30,265 nucleotides of DNA. Origin: an uncultured Dehalococcoidia bacterium. Its GTDB lineage: Bacteria; Chloroflexota; Dehalococcoidia; SZUA-161; CAYRBX01. This document shows positions 1,484 to 10,235 of the stretch, piece after piece. The notes under the pieces were generated by a model. The model had not been told where the DNA came from, made no database searches, and saw only the letters and a program-made list of their open reading frames with translations. The position numbers and the translations under genes are program-made. Every line of letters starts with the position of its first letter. The first letter of the stretch is position 1. The stretch is from positions 1 through 30,265 of the forward strand of contig CAYRBX010000001.1 in NCBI GenBank assembly GCA_964422695.1, written 5' to 3'.

Positions 1484-1495
1484 AAAAAGGAAATG

Positions 1496-1530
1496 AAGGG
1501 CAGGGGATTGCTCCCCTGCCCTTTTCTTTT
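1496..1530 (+). terminator. Intrinsic terminator of the rrl-tRNA transcript, possibly bidirectional
   Basis: Perfect 12-bp stem AAGGGCAGGGGA (1496-1507), loop TTGC, TCCCCTGCCCTT (1512-1523), then TTCTTTT; A-tract upstream. Confidence 0.9.
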
Positions 1531-2210: not shown

Positions 2211-2249
2211 GGCATAATTGGGGTGGAGGAGAAAAAATAAGGAGGGGGG

Positions 2250-3638
2250 ATGAAATTCCGCAAGTTCTTGGAGGAGCTTGAGAGAAGAGGGGAGCTCAGA
2301 AGGGTGAAGAAGGAGGTGGATATAAAGTTCGAATCGACCGCCATCCTCAAGCGGGCTGAGAGGGAGAGAGGCCCCGCCATCTTCTTCGAGAAGCTCAGAG
2401 GGTATCCTCAGAGGAGCATGGTCGGCAATTTGTTCTCAACCGAGGAGAGGATAGCTCTGGCGATGGGAGCGAGGGAGGGGATCCCTCCGCGCAAGGCCGC
2501 GGCCGAGCGCCTCATGGAGCTTTACGCCGCCGCTCCCCAAGCCGTGAAGCCTCCGAAGCTCGTGGAGACGAGTCCCGCAAAGGAGGTGATCCTCAAAGAG
2601 GATTTCGACCTCATGAGGGAGATCCCCGTCCCCACGCATTGCGAGAAGGACGGAGGCCCTTACATAGCGGCGGGGGTGGTGATCGCGAAGCATCCGGATA
2701 CCGGGGAGAGGATCGTTCAGATAATAGAGATGCAGGTGAAGGGCAAAAGCAAGATCGCCATCTCCCCCGTCCTTCCCCTCATGCCTCAGGCTTTCGCCCG
2801 AGCCGAGGAGATGGGAAAGCCCCTTGAGATCGCCATCGCCATAGGAGTGGAGCCGGCATTGCTCCTCGCCGCCGCCACCGCTCCCGAGATCGCCGCTCTG
2901 GACAAATACGAGCTTGCAAGCCTCTTCTCGGGGGAGCCGCTGGAGATCGTTCGAGCCGAAACGGTGGATCTCGAAATCCCCGCCGATGCCGAATTCGTAA
3001 TAGAAGGGGAGGTGATCCCCGGAGCAAGAGAAAGTATGGGCCCTTACGGGGATTACCTCCGCACTTACTACTGGGTGGAGAGCAAGCCTGTAATAGAAGC
3101 GAAGGCCATAACCATGAGGAAGGAGCCCATATATCAGGACATCCTCGCCGACGGCTTGGAGACCGTGCTCCTTGTAGCGCTCCCCAATGAGGTGGAGCTT
3201 TTGAGGAAGCTCAAATCCCTCTTCCCCTTCGTTGAAGATGTTTACCTCACCCGCAGCAGCTCCTCTCATCACGCCATCATCAGCGTGAGGAAGATGAGAG
3301 ATGAGGATATAAGGCCTCTCATAAACTGGACTTTAGCGACCGCCACTCTCGTGAAACATCTCATTGTGGTTGATGCCGATGATGTCGATCCGACAAATCC
3401 TGATGAGGTCGAATGGGCTTTGGTGACGCGAGTGAGAGCAGATAAAGATGTGGTGATAATCCCCGGCTTCTACGGCTCTCCTCTCGATCCCTCAAGCGAG
3501 AAGGGATTTTGGACCAAAATGGGCATCGATGCCACACGTCCTCTCACCGTTCCGAGAGAGAGATTTGAGAAATCAGATGTCCCCTCAGAAGTGAAGAGGA
3601 AAGTGGAGGAGAGGTGGGAGGATTACTTTAAAGAATGA
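2250..3638 (+). CDS. UbiD-family (de)carboxylase-fold protein with substituted prFMN/Mn-binding and catalytic residues
   Basis: Recognisable UbiD segments GPAIFFEK, DGGPYIAAGVVIAK, AIAIGVEP, IPADAEFVIEG, GPYGD, IVVDADDVDP...VEWALVTR, KMGIDATRP; SD GGAGGGGGG upstream. Confidence 0.88.
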   Translation: MKFRKFLEELERRGELRRVKKEVDIKFESTAILKRAERERGPAIFFEKLRGYPQRSMVGNLFSTEERIALAMGAREGIPPRKAAAERLMELYAAAPQAVKPPKLVETSPAKEVILKEDFDLMREIPVPTHCEKDGGPYIAAGVVIAKHPDTGERIVQIIEMQVKGKSKIAISPVLPLMPQAFARAEEMGKPLEIAIAIGVEPALLLAAATAPEIAALDKYELASLFSGEPLEIVRAETVDLEIPADAEFVIEGEVIPGARESMGPYGDYLRTYYWVESKPVIEAKAITMRKEPIYQDILADGLETVLLVALPNEVELLRKLKSLFPFVEDVYLTRSSSSHHAIISVRKMRDEDIRPLINWTLATATLVKHLIVVDADDVDPTNPDEVEWALVTRVRADKDVVIIPGFYGSPLDPSSEKGFWTKMGIDATRPLTVPRERFEKSDVPSEVKRKVEERWEDYFKE

Positions 3639-4573
3639 AAACCGGGTTTCATAAGCCCGTTCTCCTGAAAGAAGTGCTTGAAGCTCTCTCCCCAAAACCG
3701 GGCGGGAAGTACATAGATTGCACGGTGGGAAGCGGGGGGCATGCGAAAGCCATTTTGGAGCGAATTGTTCCGGAAGGAAGGCTGCTGGGAATAGATATCG
3801 ATCCTGAAGCTATAGAGCTTTCGGTTCAAAATTTGAGGCAATTCGGAAGCAATGTGAATCTCGTAAATGCAGATTACGCATTTCTTGAAGAGATCGCCTC
3901 TCAGTATGGATTTGAAAAAGTCGACGGCATTCTCTTCGATTTGGGAATAGCTTCCTTTCAGATCGAAAACGGAAAGAGAGGTTTTAGCTTTAATATCGAA
4001 GGGCCTCTTGATATGCGCTACAATCCCTACCAGCAATCTCTCACCGCTGCAGAGGTCGTAAATACCTATCATCCCAAAGAGCTTGCTCGAATTTTGAGAG
4101 AATTCGGAGAGGAGCCGAGAGCTTGGAGAATCGCTCAGGAAATAGTAAAAGCTCGCAAAGCGCGCGATATCGAAACCACTTTGGAATTGGCGAGAATAGT
4201 GGAAAAAGTTTACGGAGGAAGAGAGGGTTTTCGCATTCACCCGGCCACCCGCACCTTCCTGGCCTTGAGGATTTTCGTCAATCGAGAGCTCGAGAAGCTC
4301 GAACTCGCCCTCAGGCAGGCGGTAAAGCTCCTCTCCCCCGGGGGAAGAATTGTCGTGATCACCTTCCATTCTCTGGAAGATCGCTTGGTGAAGAGATTCT
4401 TCGAAGAGGAAGCCAAAAATTGTATCTGTCCTCCTCGAATTCCTCAGTGCGTTTGCGGCCACAGAGCTTCCCTTAGGATCATCACCAAAAAGCCCATTCG
4501 CACTTCCGAAGAGGAGAAGGAGGAAAATCCCAGGAGCAGAAGCGCTAAGATGAGAGTCGCCGAGAAGATCTGA
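3635..4573 (+). CDS. rsmH: 16S rRNA m4C1402 methyltransferase RsmH (MraW)
   Basis: HKPVLL, DCTVGSGGHA, DLGIASFQ, RGFSF, PLDMRY, HPATRTFLALRIFVNREL, ITFHSLEDRLVK, NPRSRSAKMR; ATGA overlap with the upstream stop. Confidence 0.97.
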   Translation: MKTGFHKPVLLKEVLEALSPKPGGKYIDCTVGSGGHAKAILERIVPEGRLLGIDIDPEAIELSVQNLRQFGSNVNLVNADYAFLEEIASQYGFEKVDGILFDLGIASFQIENGKRGFSFNIEGPLDMRYNPYQQSLTAAEVVNTYHPKELARILREFGEEPRAWRIAQEIVKARKARDIETTLELARIVEKVYGGREGFRIHPATRTFLALRIFVNRELEKLELALRQAVKLLSPGGRIVVITFHSLEDRLVKRFFEEEAKNCICPPRIPQCVCGHRASLRIITKKPIRTSEEEKEENPRSRSAKMRVAEKI

Positions 4574-4650: not shown

Positions 4651-5883
4651 ATGGAGAAGATCCTTACGGCCATAGATGTAGGGACGTATAAAGTCTGCTG
4701 TCTTATAGGCTCTCTTGAGGCGGAGGGATTGAAGATCATAGGACAGGGGGTTGTTCCGAGCCGGGGCCTTCATAAGGGATTGGTGGTCAATATCGATGAA
4801 GTTCGCGCTTCCGTTCGCGAAGCCGTCATCCGGGCCGAGCAGATGGCCGGATTGAGGGTGGAGTGGGCGTTTGTGGGGATCACCGGAGCTCATGTGAGCT
4901 CTCTCAACACGAAGGCCACGGTGGCCATTTCGCGAAGCGATAGGCTCGTAACCCCCGATGCTCTGAGGCGCGTTCTGCAAATCGCCCGGAGCGTTGTTCC
5001 CGTTCCCAGCGATAAGATGATCCTCCACGTCATCCCTCGCCGCTATGTGCTCGATGACGGGATAGCGGTGGCCAATCCGGTGGGGATGTACGCCGAGAAG
5101 CTGGATGCCGAAGTTCATCTGGTGATGGCGGCGGCGACTTCGGTGAGGAACCTCATAAGGGCGATTCAAGGTCTCGGAATTGAGATAAGAGATCTCATCT
5201 TGGAGCCTCTGGCGAGCGCGGAAGCGGTGCTCACCGAGGAGGAGAAGGAGAAGGGCGTCATCTTGGCCGATATAGGAGGGGGGACTACGGATATCGTCCT
5301 CTTCCGCGAGGGGAGCATCTGGCACTCCTCGGTCCTCCCGGTGGGGGGCTATCAGGTCACTCGAGATATCTTCATCTGCATGAACATACCTTTCGAGATC
5401 GCGGAGGAGATGAAGAAGAAGTACGGGGATGTGAGCCCCCGCTACGAGCCCTCCCCGCCGGAGGAAGGAGCTCTTGCGACCGATAAGACCCCCGCTCCGA
5501 GCAGGGAATTCTACGAGATCCTCAGAGCCAGAGTGGAGGAGATCCTTCACCTCATAGTAGCCGAAGTTTCGGCTTATGGCGATCGAAGGGAGATAGCGCC
5601 CGCCGGCCTCGTGCTCACCGGAGGGACCTCCAACCTCAGGGGCATCGATGAGCTGGGGCGGGAGATTCTGGGGATTCCGGTGAGAGTGGGGAGGCCGCAG
5701 AATCTGACCGGGCTCTGCGAGGGGCTTGCGGATCCGGCTTACGCCACGAGCGTGGGCCTCATCCTCTGGGGGGTGAAGCACTTGGGAGAGGAGAGGTGGA
5801 AGGGGAGGGAGCTCGGCCGGGACTTCAAAGGCGCTTTGCGCCGCTTCTTCAAAGCTCTCGGGCGCTTTTTCACCGGCGGATGA
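4651..5883 (+). CDS. ftsA: Cell division protein FtsA
   Basis: AIDVGTYKV, GLHKGLVVNI, LEPLASAEAVL, DIGGGTTD, VLTGGTS, PAYATSVGL, C-terminal amphipathic helix FKGALRRFFKALGRFF. Confidence 0.97.
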   Translation: MEKILTAIDVGTYKVCCLIGSLEAEGLKIIGQGVVPSRGLHKGLVVNIDEVRASVREAVIRAEQMAGLRVEWAFVGITGAHVSSLNTKATVAISRSDRLVTPDALRRVLQIARSVVPVPSDKMILHVIPRRYVLDDGIAVANPVGMYAEKLDAEVHLVMAAATSVRNLIRAIQGLGIEIRDLILEPLASAEAVLTEEEKEKGVILADIGGGTTDIVLFREGSIWHSSVLPVGGYQVTRDIFICMNIPFEIAEEMKKKYGDVSPRYEPSPPEEGALATDKTPAPSREFYEILRARVEEILHLIVAEVSAYGDRREIAPAGLVLTGGTSNLRGIDELGREILGIPVRVGRPQNLTGLCEGLADPAYATSVGLILWGVKHLGEERWKGRELGRDFKGALRRFFKALGRFFTGG

Positions 5884-5926
5884 GGGAGTTAAATTAAAGA
5901 GTAAGAAAATGCCTGAGGGAGGGGAG

Positions 5927-7003
5927 ATGAAGGCGGAAAACGAGGAATTCAGCATTTACCCGGCGAAGATCAAGGTCGTCGGAATAGGGGGCGGCGGCTG
6001 CAACGCCGTCGAGCGAATGTACGAGGAGGGAATCGAAGGAGTTGAGTTCATCGCAGCCAACAGCGATGTTCAGCATCTCGCCGGCCTCAAGGTTCCGAAC
6101 AAGATCCAGCTTGGGAAGAAGCTGACCAGAGGCCTCGGAGTGGGGGGAGATCCCGAGCTCGGGGAGAAGGCGGCCGAGGAGAGCCGCGAGGCCTTGGCCG
6201 AGGCGGTCAAGGGAAGCGATCTCGTGTTCCTCACCGCCGGGATGGGAGGGGGAACGGGAACGGGAGGCATTCCCATCTTGGCGGAGATCTGCAAGGAGGC
6301 CAAAGCCCTCACCGTCGCCGTGGTGACCCTTCCCTTCAGCTTTGAGGGAACTCACAGAGCTAAGGTGGCCGAAGAGGGCCTCATCAAACTTCAGGATAAG
6401 GTGGACACCCTCATCGTGATCCCGAACGACAGGCTTCTGGAGCTGGCGGATCAGCGCCTCCTCTTCCGCGATGCCTTCCGCATGGCGGACGAAGCTCTTT
6501 ACGCCGGGGTGAAGGGCATTTCGGAGCTCGTGACGGTTCAGGGGGTTATAAATCTGGATCTCGCGGATCTCCGCGCGGTTCTCTCCAATGCGGGCCCCGC
6601 CTGGATGGCCATAGGGCGGGCGACCGGTCACAATCGGGCTGTGGAGGCGGCGAAGAACGCCCTCTCAAGCCCTCTTCTGGGAACTCCCATCAAAGATGCC
6701 AAGCGCATACTCTACTCCATCATGGGAGGTCCGGATCTCACCCTTCATGAGGTGAAGGAAGTCGGAGATTTCATCCGCTCGGTGGCCGCTCCCGACGCCA
6801 TGATCATCTTCGGGGTGGTTCAGAACGAGGAAATAAGCGATGAGATAAGGATCATCCTCGTGGCCACCGGCTTCCCCGCTCCTTCTCCCAAGAGGAGGGA
6901 GAGGAAGCCCTCCCTCGCCGAGGAGAGAGAGGAGCTCGCCAGCTTGAAGGAAGGGGAGAAGCTGGATATCCCCACCTTCTTGCGACGCGCGGCCCTTCGC
7001 TGA
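5927..7003 (+). CDS. ftsZ: Cell division protein FtsZ
   Basis: IKVVGIGGGGCNAV, TRGLGVGGDP, GMGGGTGTGG tubulin signature, PFSFEG, NLDLAD, C-terminal LDIPTFLRR. ATG 5927 chosen for its SD GGAGGGGAG; the ORF track starts at 5909. Confidence 0.98.
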   Translation: MKAENEEFSIYPAKIKVVGIGGGGCNAVERMYEEGIEGVEFIAANSDVQHLAGLKVPNKIQLGKKLTRGLGVGGDPELGEKAAEESREALAEAVKGSDLVFLTAGMGGGTGTGGIPILAEICKEAKALTVAVVTLPFSFEGTHRAKVAEEGLIKLQDKVDTLIVIPNDRLLELADQRLLFRDAFRMADEALYAGVKGISELVTVQGVINLDLADLRAVLSNAGPAWMAIGRATGHNRAVEAAKNALSSPLLGTPIKDAKRILYSIMGGPDLTLHEVKEVGDFIRSVAAPDAMIIFGVVQNEEISDEIRIILVATGFPAPSPKRRERKPSLAEEREELASLKEGEKLDIPTFLRRAALR

Positions 7004-7026: not shown

Positions 7027-9582
7027 ATGAACTTCAAGAAGGAGGAGCAGAAGCTCTACTCCCGCATAGTGAGGGCCATCTTCGAGACGGCGGAGACCAT
7101 GGGGATCGCCGAGAGGGAGGCTCTGGAGCAGCTCTCCAGGCAGGTGATAGAGCGCCTCCGCCGCCGCCCCCTTCCCGGGCTGGAGGAATTCGTTCCGGAA
7201 GCCAAGATCTTCCGTTTCTCCGATGCGGAGATCGAGCACATCGCGAAGGAGGTGATCTCGGAGGAGCTGAAGAGGAAAAAGCCCTCCCGGCGCATAACCC
7301 TCGTCTCCCCCGAGATCCCGTCCGAGGAGGAGATAAAGCTCACCCCCACCGCCAAAGCGGTTTTGGAGAGGAGGTATTTGAAGAAAGACGAGAAGGGGAG
7401 GGTGATCGAAACCCCCAAGGAATTGTTCCAGAGGGTGGCGCGTCATATCGCTTCGGCCGAGAGGATTTACGATCCCGACGCCGATGTCGAGAAGTGGGAG
7501 AGGGAGTTCTTCCGCCTCATGGCCAACTTGGAGTTCCTTCCCAACTCCCCCACCTTGATGAACGCCGGAAGGGAGCTCGGGCAGCTCTCCGCCTGCTTCG
7601 TCATCCCCATCGAGGATTCGATGGATTCCATCTTCGATGCCGTCAAATACACGGCTCTCATTCACAAGAGCGGCGGGGGAACCGGCTTCTCCTTCTCGAG
7701 GCTCCGGCCGGAATCCGATAGGGTGGGCTCCACCGGGGGGGTCGCGAGCGGCCCCGTATCCTTCATGAGGGTTTTCGACACGGCGACCGATGTGATCAAA
7801 CAGGGGGGGATGAGGCGGGGCGCCAATATGGCCATCCTCCGGGTGGATCACCCCGATATCCTGAAGTTCATAACGGCGAAGGAGGATCCCAGAGCTTTCA
7901 CGAATTTCAACCTCTCGGTGGCCGTTCCCGATGAGTTCATGGAGAAGGTCGAGAGAGGGGAGGATTACGATCTCATAAATCCTCGAACAGGGGAGGCGGT
8001 GGGGAGGCTAAATGCGAAAGAGGTCTTCGATAAGATCGTCGAAATGGCTTGGAAGACGGGAGATCCCGGCCTCGTTTTCATAGATCGAATAAACCGGGAT
8101 AATCCCACCCCTCACCTCGGACAAATAGAATCCACAAATCCCTGCGGGGAGCAGCCCCTGCTTCCCTTCGAATCATGCAATCTGGGCTCGATAAACCTCT
8201 CCAAGATGCTCAAAGAGGAAAACGGAAGATTTGTGATCGATTGGGAGAAATTGAGAAAGACGGTGTGGGTGGCCGTCAGATTTCTCGATAATGTGATCGA
8301 TGTCAACAAATATCCTCTCCCTCAAATCGAGGAAATGACCAAGAAGACGAGGAAAATAGGTCTCGGAGTTATGGGCTTCGCCGATATGCTCATCAAAATG
8401 GGAGTTCCTTATGATTCCGAGGAAGCTCTTCGGATCGCAGAGGAGGTAATGGAATTCATCGACACCGAAGCGCTAAAGGCCTCAGAATCTCTGGCAGAAG
8501 AGAGGGGAGTATTTCCGGCTTTCAAGGGGAGCATTTACGATCGGCCGGGCGGTCCCAAGGTGAGAAATGCCACAAGAACCACAATCGCCCCCACAGGAAC
8601 GCTGAGCATTATCGCAGGATGCTCTTCCGGAATAGAGCCTTTATTCGCCATAGCTTTCGTTCGTCACATCCTCGAGGGGGAGCATTTCATAGAGGTGAAT
8701 CCCCTGTTCGAGGAGATCGCCAAGAAAGAGGGATTCTGGAGCGAGGAGCTCATGAAGAAAGTCGCCGAAAAGGGGAGCATTCAGGATATGGAGGAAATCC
8801 CACCTCATATAAGAAGGCTTTTCGTCACGGCTCATGATATAGCTCCCGAATGGCATGTTCGAATGCAGGCGGCCTTTCAGAAACACACCAACAACGCCGT
8901 ATCCAAAACCGTAAACCTCCCTCATCACGCCACGAAGGAGGATGTCGCCAGGGTATTCTTCCAAGCTTTCAGAGAGGGATGTAAGGGGATTACGGTCTTT
9001 CGAGATCGATGCAGGGAGGATCAGGTTCTGAGCGTGGGGCTCAAGGGGAAGGAGGAGAGGGCCGCTCCGGCGGAGGAGAAGCTCGTTCCCCGTCCCAGAC
9101 CTCGGACGACTCGAGGGGTGACGGAGAGGGTGACGACGGGATGCGGCAACCTCTACGTCACCGTCAATTTCGACGACAAGGGGCCGTGCGAGGTCTTCTC
9201 CAGTTTGGGGAAGGCGGGAGGGTGCGCCTCGGCTCAGCTTGAGGCCATGTGCCGCCTTATCTCCCTGGCCCTGCGGGCCGGAGTGGATGCGAAGGCCATA
9301 GTGAAGCACCTGAGGGGCATTCGCTGTCCTTCCATCGCTTGGGATGAAGGCCAGGCCGTTCTCTCCTGCGCCGATGCCATAGGAATGGTGCTTCAGAAAT
9401 ACACCCAATCTCAAACCCTCCCCCTCTCGGAAAAGCCCTCGCGAAATCAAAATCAGGAAGCGGAGATCGAAGAGGCCTTTCAGGGGAATCTCGCCGGACA
9501 ATGCCCCGATTGCGGGAGCATTCTCGTCTATCAGGAGGGTTGCTTCATCTGCCATAGCTGCGGCTACACCAAGTGCGGATGA
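7027..9582 (+). CDS. nrdJ: Class II (adenosylcobalamin-dependent) ribonucleotide reductase with TSCPD/Zn-ribbon C-terminus
   Basis: FLPNSPTLMNAG, LSACFV, GGGTGFSFS, RRGANM, STNPCGEQPL, CNLGSINL, TIAPTGT, VSKTVN, C-terminal CPDCG..QEGCFICHSCGYTKCG. No intein seen. Confidence 0.96.
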   Translation: MNFKKEEQKLYSRIVRAIFETAETMGIAEREALEQLSRQVIERLRRRPLPGLEEFVPEAKIFRFSDAEIEHIAKEVISEELKRKKPSRRITLVSPEIPSEEEIKLTPTAKAVLERRYLKKDEKGRVIETPKELFQRVARHIASAERIYDPDADVEKWEREFFRLMANLEFLPNSPTLMNAGRELGQLSACFVIPIEDSMDSIFDAVKYTALIHKSGGGTGFSFSRLRPESDRVGSTGGVASGPVSFMRVFDTATDVIKQGGMRRGANMAILRVDHPDILKFITAKEDPRAFTNFNLSVAVPDEFMEKVERGEDYDLINPRTGEAVGRLNAKEVFDKIVEMAWKTGDPGLVFIDRINRDNPTPHLGQIESTNPCGEQPLLPFESCNLGSINLSKMLKEENGRFVIDWEKLRKTVWVAVRFLDNVIDVNKYPLPQIEEMTKKTRKIGLGVMGFADMLIKMGVPYDSEEALRIAEEVMEFIDTEALKASESLAEERGVFPAFKGSIYDRPGGPKVRNATRTTIAPTGTLSIIAGCSSGIEPLFAIAFVRHILEGEHFIEVNPLFEEIAKKEGFWSEELMKKVAEKGSIQDMEEIPPHIRRLFVTAHDIAPEWHVRMQAAFQKHTNNAVSKTVNLPHHATKEDVARVFFQAFREGCKGITVFRDRCREDQVLSVGLKGKEERAAPAEEKLVPRPRPRTTRGVTERVTTGCGNLYVTVNFDDKGPCEVFSSLGKAGGCASAQLEAMCRLISLALRAGVDAKAIVKHLRGIRCPSIAWDEGQAVLSCADAIGMVLQKYTQSQTLPLSEKPSRNQNQEAEIEEAFQGNLAGQCPDCGSILVYQEGCFICHSCGYTKCG

Positions 9583-10235
9583 GCTCTGAGAGAGGAGCTC
9601 TGTGGGATCTCGACGGGGTGATAGTCGACAGCGGCCCCTTCCATTTCCGAGCTTGGCGGAGGATCGCCGGGCTTCTGGGAAGAGATCTCGCCCCCGAGGA
9701 ATTCAGAGCTTCCTTCGGCCTTCGCAATGAGGACATCCTGCGCCGCTTCTTCGGGATCTCGGATCCCGAGAGAGCTTCGGAGCTCGCCCGGAGGAAAGAG
9801 GAATTCTTCCGGGAGGAGATAAGGGGAAAGATCCAGCCTCAGCCGGGAGCGATGGAGCTCCTTCGCCTCTTCGAAGATCTCGGTTTCGCTCAAGCTCTCG
9901 TCTCATCCACTCCTCGGGAGAACATAGATCTCATCCTCTCCGCTCTTGAGATCCGGGATTTCTTCTCGGCGATCATAAGCGGGGAGGATGTGAGGAGAGG
10001 AAAGCCGGATCCCGAGGGCTATCTTCTGGCCGCACGAAAGCTTGGAATCGCTCCGGAGAACTGCGTGGTTATAGAAGATGCCGTGGCCGGGGTGCAGGCC
10101 GCAAGAGCCGCGGGAATGAAATGCATCGCCGTCGCAACCACCTACCCTCCTGAAGCTTTAAAAGATGCGGATCTCGTCGTTCAAACTCTGAAGGAAGTGA
10201 ATTCCAAGATCTTAGAAGATCTCTTCGGGAGGTAG
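9579..10235 (+). CDS. HAD-family phosphatase (beta-phosphoglucomutase/CbbY-like)
   Basis: WDLDGVIVDS, VSST, GKPDPEGY, VIEDAVAGVQAA; ATG 9579 overlaps the nrdJ stop (ATGA). Confidence 0.92.
   Translation: MSSERGALWDLDGVIVDSGPFHFRAWRRIAGLLGRDLAPEEFRASFGLRNEDILRRFFGISDPERASELARRKEEFFREEIRGKIQPQPGAMELLRLFEDLGFAQALVSSTPRENIDLILSALEIRDFFSAIISGEDVRRGKPDPEGYLLAARKLGIAPENCVVIEDAVAGVQAARAAGMKCIAVATTYPPEALKDADLVVQTLKEVNSKILEDLFGR

Follow-up and report, generated by a model that had tools for sequence, protein, structure and literature searches.

A gene on contig CAYRBX010000001.1 of an uncultured Dehalococcoidia bacterium (30,265 nt, all of it analysed and referred to below as the window) encodes a UbiD-family protein in which most of the residues expected to hold the prenylated flavin mononucleotide (prFMN) cofactor and to catalyse decarboxylation are replaced. 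The question raised by this locus is what such a protein may still do. An earlier sequence-only reading of the window had proposed either a non-catalytic subunit or a UbiD fold with new chemistry. The results described here suggest that the protein (the query) would be a UbiD paralogue kept by selection and no longer engaged in (de)carboxylation of the UbiD type, and we see about an even chance that it serves the UbiX/prFMN system as an accessory that does not decarboxylate. New chemistry is the main rival and is less likely than an accessory role, which is the half of the earlier proposal favoured by the genomic associations.

Replacement of the metal-binding and catalytic residues

In the structures of Fdc1 and UbiD, Asn, His and Glu are the ligands of the Mn2+ that binds the prFMN phosphate. 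Previous studies have shown that the prFMN phosphate of canonical UbiDs is held via Mn2+ and K+ (PMC7976604, PMC8988006), and that UbiD catalysis needs an R-Xn-E-X4-(E/D) network in which only a change from Glu to Asp is tolerated (PMC5818171). In the same work, substitutions at the Arg and Glu of Fdc1, with the exception of Glu to Asp, left essentially no activity, and the catalytic Arg also affected oxidative maturation (PMC5818171).

The query was aligned with E. coli UbiD (PDB 2idb) by phmmer, with HmfF (6h6v, E 9e-97), and with 120 homologues by MAFFT. In the alignment with E. coli UbiD, QNLGIYRQQ was paired with RIVQIIEMQ, SEY with DKY and EGPYGD with MGPYGD, and the His of WLSHRGG lay opposite a gap in the query; the HmfF and 120-homologue alignments concurred. 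Each of the motif replacements that the sequence-only reading had described, affecting Mn ligands and catalytic residues and including two charge reversals, was reproduced in this way. Of the six signature residues only one is kept, and the charge is reversed at two of the five replaced positions. All three Mn2+ ligand positions are affected (Ile155, Leu177 and Lys219 in place of Asn, His and Glu), as are two of the three positions of the catalytic network (Glu160 in place of Arg and Met263 in place of the first Glu), which leaves only Asp268. Since no Asn occurs in query residues 150-165 and no His in residues 165-185, the result is robust to small alignment shifts. In the same columns of about 110 homologues outside the clade of the query, Asn was found in 85, Arg in 109 of 110, His in 72 and Glu in 82 (Lys in 25), while the first Glu position held Glu in 90 or Asp in 16 and the acid position held Glu or Asp in 101.

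The query therefore has neither the Asn/His/Glu set of Mn2+ ligands nor the R-Xn-E-X4-(E/D) network of prFMN-dependent UbiD (de)carboxylases. Because this network is required and both its Arg and its first Glu are gone, the protein, as judged from its sequence, cannot be a canonical prFMN/Mn decarboxylase.

Family membership and predicted fold

Three UbiD Pfam domains were identified in the query, namely UbiD_N (PF20695, 73.9 bits), UbiD (PF01977, 174.5 bits) and UbiD_C (PF20696, 102.5 bits). The NCBIfam model of the UbiD family, TIGR00148, was passed with 336.3 bits (cut-off 244.85), and it was the only NCBIfam model passed; the query was below the cut-off of all the specific equivalogs (UbiD, MqnL-type, VdcC, PpcA and PpcB), and NCBIfam contains no specific family for its clade or for the Lys-type proteins described below. 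The AlphaFold2 model was obtained with a predicted local distance difference test score (pLDDT) of 95.1 and a predicted template-modelling score (pTM) of 0.91. The top Foldseek match was HmfF (6h6v), with a template-modelling score (TM) of 0.88-0.92, and E. coli UbiD was matched with a TM of 0.81-0.89. The query retains the UbiD fold as well as the hinge and the family motifs near its C-terminus, and the open reading frame (ORF) encodes a UbiD-family protein of full length, for which an HmfF-like fold is confidently predicted.

HmfF of Pelotomaculum thermopropionicum (PDB 6H6V/6H6X) was the best match by sequence as well as by structure, with 40% identity over a full-length, three-domain protein, but it carries the canonical Asn/His/Glu and Arg/Glu/Glu residues wherever those of the query are replaced. 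Similarly, E. coli UbiD and A. niger Fdc1 belong to the same family and fold, whereas five of the six signature residues differ in the query.

Selection and conservation within the clade

When the gene was compared with its counterpart on the sibling contig L005 (94% identical), the ratio of non-synonymous to synonymous substitution rates (dN/dS) was 0.080 (64 synonymous and 20 non-synonymous differences), between the values of the neighbouring rsmH (0.048) and haloacid dehalogenase (HAD) family gene (0.143). This check, which had been suggested together with the sequence-only reading, points to purifying selection. A sharp step was seen in the homology search: one sibling with 96% identity and about ten proteins with 49-57% identity were found, and all others had 42% or less. 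Glu160, Lys219, Met263 and Asp268 are invariant over the members of about 50% identity, from both Bacteria and Archaea; Ser172, Pro173, Val174 and Pro176 are likewise clade-invariant, as is Gln157. The clade signature consists of THCEKDGGPY, R-x-x-Q-x-x-E-x-Q, ISPVxP, DK[YF], MGPxGDY-x2-TYYW and HH. At the DKY position, Lys was found in 100% of the clade and of the Lys-type group, and Glu in 100% of the canonical group. Lys279 is the sole clade-specific basic residue near the loop. Because the substitutions are invariant in relatives of only about 50% identity, they are not decay; the protein has a function, and constraint acts on the site.

These results bear on the view that the query is an ordinary prFMN-dependent decarboxylase whose differences are an alignment artefact, or else a decaying pseudogene, which we consider very improbable. 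Family membership is solid, and relatives are named '2,5-furandicarboxylate decarboxylase 1' by the pipelines of the Joint Genome Institute (JGI). Against this view, the same result came from each of three independent alignments, and the Asn, the His and the Arg are missing from the segments concerned. A pseudogene is contradicted by the intact frame, the dN/dS of 0.08 and the pLDDT of 95. Both the pseudogene and the misalignment readings were rejected, on the pLDDT of 95.1, the dN/dS of 0.08 and the alignment with E. coli UbiD.

The clade is rare, with about 11 clusters among 5.8 billion proteins. A search of 1.84 billion cluster representatives with a clade profile yielded one full-length representative and fragments, and a search of one genome per species (185,579 species) yielded a single member, in a metagenome-assembled genome (MAG) of the Syntrophobacteraceae (L015). 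Four clade-member loci were found in a scan of JGI metagenomes, two of them duplicating other clade loci of the sample; the other 60-odd loci of the scan were canonical archaeal-type UbiDs having only the THCEKDGGPY motif in common with the clade. No clade member was found in the plasmid collection, where the best identity was 37.5%. The clade occurs in Bacteria and on at least one archaeal contig (with V-ATPase and HypA/HypD genes).

Dozens of archaeal-type UbiDs from soil and peat (L027-L075, L017-L023), several of them labelled Nitrososphaerota or Promethearchaeota, also carry THCEKDGGPY and are otherwise canonical (NASYHR, RH, SE, EGPFPD); the Cys of this motif is therefore not specific to the Arg-less clade. 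In the clade member on the JGI contig L011, a single in-frame TAG (1957-1959) takes precisely the place of the Tyr in MGP-Y-GDY; apart from it, the frame is intact and clade-like. A sequencing error, a recoded stop or a nonsense mutation of recent origin may account for this codon.

Phylogenetic position and the Lys-type sister clade

Trees were constructed from 119 sequences and, with more care, from 65 sequences rooted on PpcA and PpcB. The query clade was monophyletic (support 99/97) and was placed as the sister branch of a large 'Lys-type' clade (joint support 99/95), not nested within it. In the Lys-type proteins, Asn is replaced by Gly, Thr or Ser, His by Pro and Glu by Lys, and the Arg and the Glu/Asp-x4-Glu pair are kept: 115 of the 117 best matches of one Lys-type protein keep the Arg, and the sampled signatures keep the acid-x4-Glu pair. 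The query has the Lys at the ligand-Glu position (Lys219), the Pro before the lost His (Pro176) and the loss of the Asn, but not the retained Arg and Glu/Asp-x4-Glu pair (Glu160 and Met263 instead). The Lys-type subfamily is large (L097, P0011-P0014, P0267-P0383), and we know of no solved structure for it. No description of Arg-less or Lys-type UbiDs was found in our literature searches.

A PpcX-like protein with the Lys-type signature (WP_041657882.1) is the third UbiD of the anaerobic phenol (pps-ppc) cluster of Azoarcus sp. KH32C (L097, NC_020548.1 138615-141574), which was obtained from the plasmid-collection search and has, on plasmid pAZKH, the order ppsABC, ppcB, ppcD, ppcA, ppcG, UbiD, UbiX, DUF120, NUDIX. 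One paper has speculated that PpcX-like proteins are 4-hydroxybenzoate decarboxylases (PMC5946492). The PpcX-like proteins and the query share the superclade (99/95), the replacement of the Mn2+ ligands, the invariant Lys and the Pro before the lost His, and the clade of the query shares with them the association with UbiX and flavin-supply genes (a DUF120 riboflavin kinase and a NUDIX gene follow in Azoarcus). They differ in that the PpcX-like proteins, 36% identical to the query, keep the Arg and Glu-x4-Glu where the query has Glu160 and Met263, and in that UbiX adjoins the PpcX-like gene, whereas no adjacent UbiX is present in the window.

Further Arg-less lineages were grouped with the query clade, three of them (P0121, P0123 and P0150) in the careful tree (support 97/91) and P0128 in a quick tree (97 in the Shimodaira-Hasegawa-like approximate likelihood ratio test, SH-aLRT). 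Across this wider Arg-less group, the residues are E/M/Q/Q/L at the Arg position, M/M/I/I/M (always hydrophobic) at the first Glu position, D/N/S/C/D at the acid position and K/K/K/R/K at the Lys position. By these residues, the catalytic apparatus was lost with no conserved substitute, and the putative phosphate-contacting Lys persisted. Variable Arg and acid positions and hydrophobic Glu positions, with the Lys kept, are what would be expected of a binding protein, not of a new catalytic triad.

Gene neighbourhoods of clade members

The neighbourhoods of clade members were compared. The order CTP-dependent riboflavin kinase, clade UbiD, Lys-type UbiD, MetA-like gene and RibBA was found in L010/L012/P0006, and the order PpcA-like UbiD, RibBA, type-2 isopentenyl diphosphate (IPP) isomerase, clade UbiD, Lys-type UbiD, UbiX and PNPOx-like in L015/L025. 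In the latter, the type-2 IPP isomerase scored 374 bits (cut-off 281) and UbiX 259 bits (cut-off 188), the UbiX gene following the Lys-type UbiD gene after a gap of 5 nt. The clade UbiD is followed by UbiX and RibBA in L026, and by an isochorismatase, RibBA and a HAD fragment in L007. In the archaeal loci L001/L002 it stands between HypA and an AsnC-like gene, with HypD after the latter, and in L004 an N-terminal remnant of a second UbiD follows. The order HAD, UbiD, rsmH was found in the window, L005 and L006, and L011 has a HAD gene directly upstream of the clade UbiD; the neighbourhood in L003 was uninformative.

Counted by lineage, UbiX is a partner in two, RibBA in four and a Lys-type UbiD in two or three, and riboflavin kinase, type-2 IPP isomerase and PNPOx-like genes also occur. 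The recurrent partners are enzymes that make FMN, dimethylallyl diphosphate (DMAPP) and prFMN, together with Lys-type UbiDs, and not substrate-specific catabolic genes.

The seven genes of the Syntrophobacteraceae MAG (L015:5294-14404, PLSV01000152.1), from the PpcA-like UbiD to the PNPOx-like gene, form a compact module that resembles a self-contained cassette for the supply and maturation of prFMN, joined to a carboxylase. The remnant in L004 (L004:1840-2200) covers no more than the ~65 N-terminal residues of a Lys-type UbiD and runs into fragmented AMP-binding ORFs; either a partner gene has decayed here, or the assembly is at fault. The context of the Lys-type UbiD in a Chloroflexi MAG was uninformative; an ORF of 192 aa without a Pfam match lies 14 nt after this gene (L095:11373-11951, L096:3390-3905) and may encode an unrecognised partner.

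The neighbourhoods also bear on the main rival, an active enzyme with rebuilt chemistry. Glu160, Asp268, Lys219, Cys131, Gln157, Lys279 and His340 would then form a new site for a new substrate, possibly an intermediate of the flavin/riboflavin pathway, with or without prFMN. The proposed site residues are clade-invariant and absent from canonical UbiDs, purifying selection is strong, and RibBA and riboflavin kinase genes are neighbours, all of which would suit such an enzyme. However, the Arg, Glu and acid positions are variable or hydrophobic in the wider Arg-less group, no recurrent substrate-related genes were found in the neighbourhoods, and Arg and Glu variants of Fdc1, bar Glu to Asp, are essentially inactive (PMC5818171). 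Rebuilt chemistry is, on balance, unlikely.

Comparison with phenylphosphate carboxylase

The sequence-only reading had pointed to the HAD phosphatase gene upstream of the UbiD-family gene as a possible partner, with phenylphosphate carboxylase as the analogy. The idea of a partner has gained some support, given that in L011 a HAD gene whose product is 46% identical to that of the window lies directly upstream of a 54%-identical clade UbiD, with both flanks unlike those of the window; the HAD gene thus adjoins the clade UbiD in two lineages, that of the window included.

The analogy itself did not hold. A phenylphosphate-carboxylase-like complex, in which the UbiD-fold protein and the HAD phosphatase would act together on a phosphorylated substrate, is suggested by this recurrent pair with its differing flanks, and the known enzyme does join UbiD-like subunits with a phosphatase subunit (PMC7500099), so that in both cases a UbiD-fold gene adjoins a gene of a HAD-superfamily phosphatase. 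PpcA and PpcB of Azoarcus KH32C, however, are catalytically intact, keeping the Asn, the Arg and Glu-x4-Glu, and the query scored far below the cut-offs of their models (129.2 bits against 564.6 for PpcA, TIGR02723; 112.7 bits against 468.95 for PpcB, TIGR02724). The window HAD showed no similarity to PpcD (E 0.086, 18 bits; 219 against 169 aa), and no second UbiD, gamma subunit or pps genes were found in the window. Such a complex is accordingly a poor prospect, rated below rebuilt chemistry; the relevant relative of the query in the pps-ppc cluster is the third UbiD next to UbiX, not PpcA or PpcB.

Gene layout in the window

The features of the locus are listed in Table 1. The full-length frame and the strong Shine-Dalgarno sequence described in the sequence-only reading were both confirmed, as was the lack of ubiX: neither ubiX nor a second ubiD was found in the 30-kb window when its other ORFs were scanned against Pfam and a UbiX probe was run by tblastn.

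Table 1. Features of the UbiD-family locus and residue motifs of its product (positions in the window)
Feature	Position	Strand	Basis and remarks
Terminator-like hairpin, strong, 3' of tRNA-fMet	1495..1524	+	Terminator scan
HAD-IA phosphatase gene, 219 aa	1551..2210	+	Pfam HAD_2; 39-nt gap to the UbiD-family gene downstream
Shine-Dalgarno sequence AGGAGG	2240..2245	+	Read from the sequence; 4 nt before the ATG of the UbiD-family gene
UbiD-family gene, 462 aa, ATG start	2250..3638	+	ORF listing; member of the rare 'Arg-less, Lys-type' clade
RIVQIIEMQ	2709..2735	+	HmfF and E. coli UbiD alignments; Mn-ligand Asn to Ile155, catalytic Arg to Glu160
SPVLPLMP	2763..2786	+	Mn-ligand His absent (Leu177); Pro176 common with Lys-type UbiDs
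DKY	2901..2909	+	Mn-ligand Glu to Lys219; common to all Lys-type UbiDs
MGPYGD	3036..3053	+	First catalytic Glu to Met263; Asp268 (acid/base position) retained
rsmH	3635..4573	+	ORF listing, Pfam; ATG overlaps the UbiD stop codon (ATGA, 3635-3638), likewise in L005 and L006

The hairpin divides the HAD-UbiD-rsmH array from the upstream 23S rRNA and tRNA-fMet genes, and downstream of it the scan, which ran to position 4700 and covered HAD, UbiD and rsmH, detected no plus-strand terminator-like site. The overlap of the rsmH start codon with the UbiD stop codon implies translational coupling of the two genes. The top NCBIfam matches of the window HAD were PGP-like and PpaX-like, none reaching its cut-off. 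Downstream, rsmH is followed on the same strand by ftsA, ftsZ, nrdJ and a second HAD gene.

The position before rsmH and the fts genes is usually occupied by mraZ. As the UbiD-family gene stands at this place, overlapping rsmH and preceding ftsA-ftsZ, a flavin-unrelated role in cell division or ribosome biogenesis was also considered. The ATGA overlap and the synteny kept in the 94%-identical sibling speak for such a role; the synteny, however, is confined to one lineage, outside which clade members are not found near rsmH or fts genes. We consider this role quite improbable, somewhat more so than the phenylphosphate-carboxylase-like complex.

The second HAD gene (9573-10235) belongs to the beta-phosphoglucomutase family and begins before nrdJ has ended, and two unrelated HAD phosphatases thereby bracket the UbiD-rsmH-ftsA-ftsZ-nrdJ block, an arrangement also seen in the 94%-identical sibling. 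For the FtsZ of the window (5909-7003), a search of 5.8 billion proteins gave one 95% sibling and nothing else above 58% identity; Chloroflexota/Dehalococcoidia supply the nearest named relatives, at 55-57% identity. The DNA of the window was present in hydrothermal-vent and sediment DNA metagenomes, and only there; no RNA-seq runs containing the locus were found. Given FtsZ relatives of only 55-57% identity and the occurrence in vent metagenomes, the host is a deep-branching, sparsely sampled, uncultured hydrothermal-vent member of the Chloroflexota.

Proposed role of the protein

An accessory role in the UbiX/prFMN system is suggested by the loss of the Mn2+ site, in the Lys-type manner, together with the further loss of the Arg (Glu160) and of the first Glu (Met263). 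From the residue replacements, the fold, the purifying selection, the phylogenetic position and the neighbourhoods, we infer cofactor binding by Lys219 and a helper role. Lys219 might stand in place of the metal and contact the cofactor phosphate directly, so that (pr)FMN could still be bound without a metal. The protein would then serve the cofactor as a carrier, a chaperone or a maturation factor, or would join a Lys-type UbiD as its non-catalytic partner. In the vent Chloroflexota its gene would be co-transcribed with the HAD phosphatase gene and rsmH, and the HAD partner might, speculatively, supply a precursor such as dimethylallyl monophosphate (DMAP) or a dephosphorylated riboflavin intermediate.

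Dedicated prFMN helpers in other folds count in favour of this role. LpdD is a prFMNH2-binding chaperone (PMC10865409) and PhdC a prFMN maturase (PMC13040415). The query may resemble them in being a non-decarboxylating cofactor handler encoded beside UbiX and UbiD genes; the folds, however, are unrelated and there is no homology, the likeness being an analogy of role.

Several observations weigh against an accessory role. Glu160, Asp268, Cys131, Gln157, Lys279 and His340 are invariant in the narrow clade, which would also fit a rebuilt active site, and the role suggested for Lys219 is read solely from its position in the alignment. The placement of P0121, P0123, P0150 and P0128 depends on long branches. 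The neighbourhoods come from a small sample of about nine independent lineages, and no prFMN or flavin genes were found in the visible DNA of the window, L011, L001 and L003.

A wider proposal is that the whole Lys-type branch, comprising the PpcX-like proteins and the Arg-less clade, consists not of decarboxylases but of metal-independent prFMN handlers, which would take the product of UbiX and load or mature the true UbiDs without oxygen. The Arg-less proteins would be the pure carrier form, expressed constitutively in the vent Chloroflexota together with a precursor-making phosphatase. We advance this proposal tentatively, and think it unlikely to hold in full; if it were true, the Lys-type branch would supply a missing component for the activation of prFMN in strict anaerobes.

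UbiD enzymes are under development for reversible CO2 fixation and for the degradation of aromatic compounds, and the heterologous activation of many of them fails. The present results bear on how strict anaerobes load prFMN and mature it oxidatively. Annotation pipelines misname proteins of this kind as decarboxylases, for example as '2,5-furandicarboxylate decarboxylase'. A conserved UbiD-fold protein with a putatively remodelled cofactor pocket and lost catalysis, together with its PpcX-like sister, provides concrete, testable candidates for helpers of the prFMN system.

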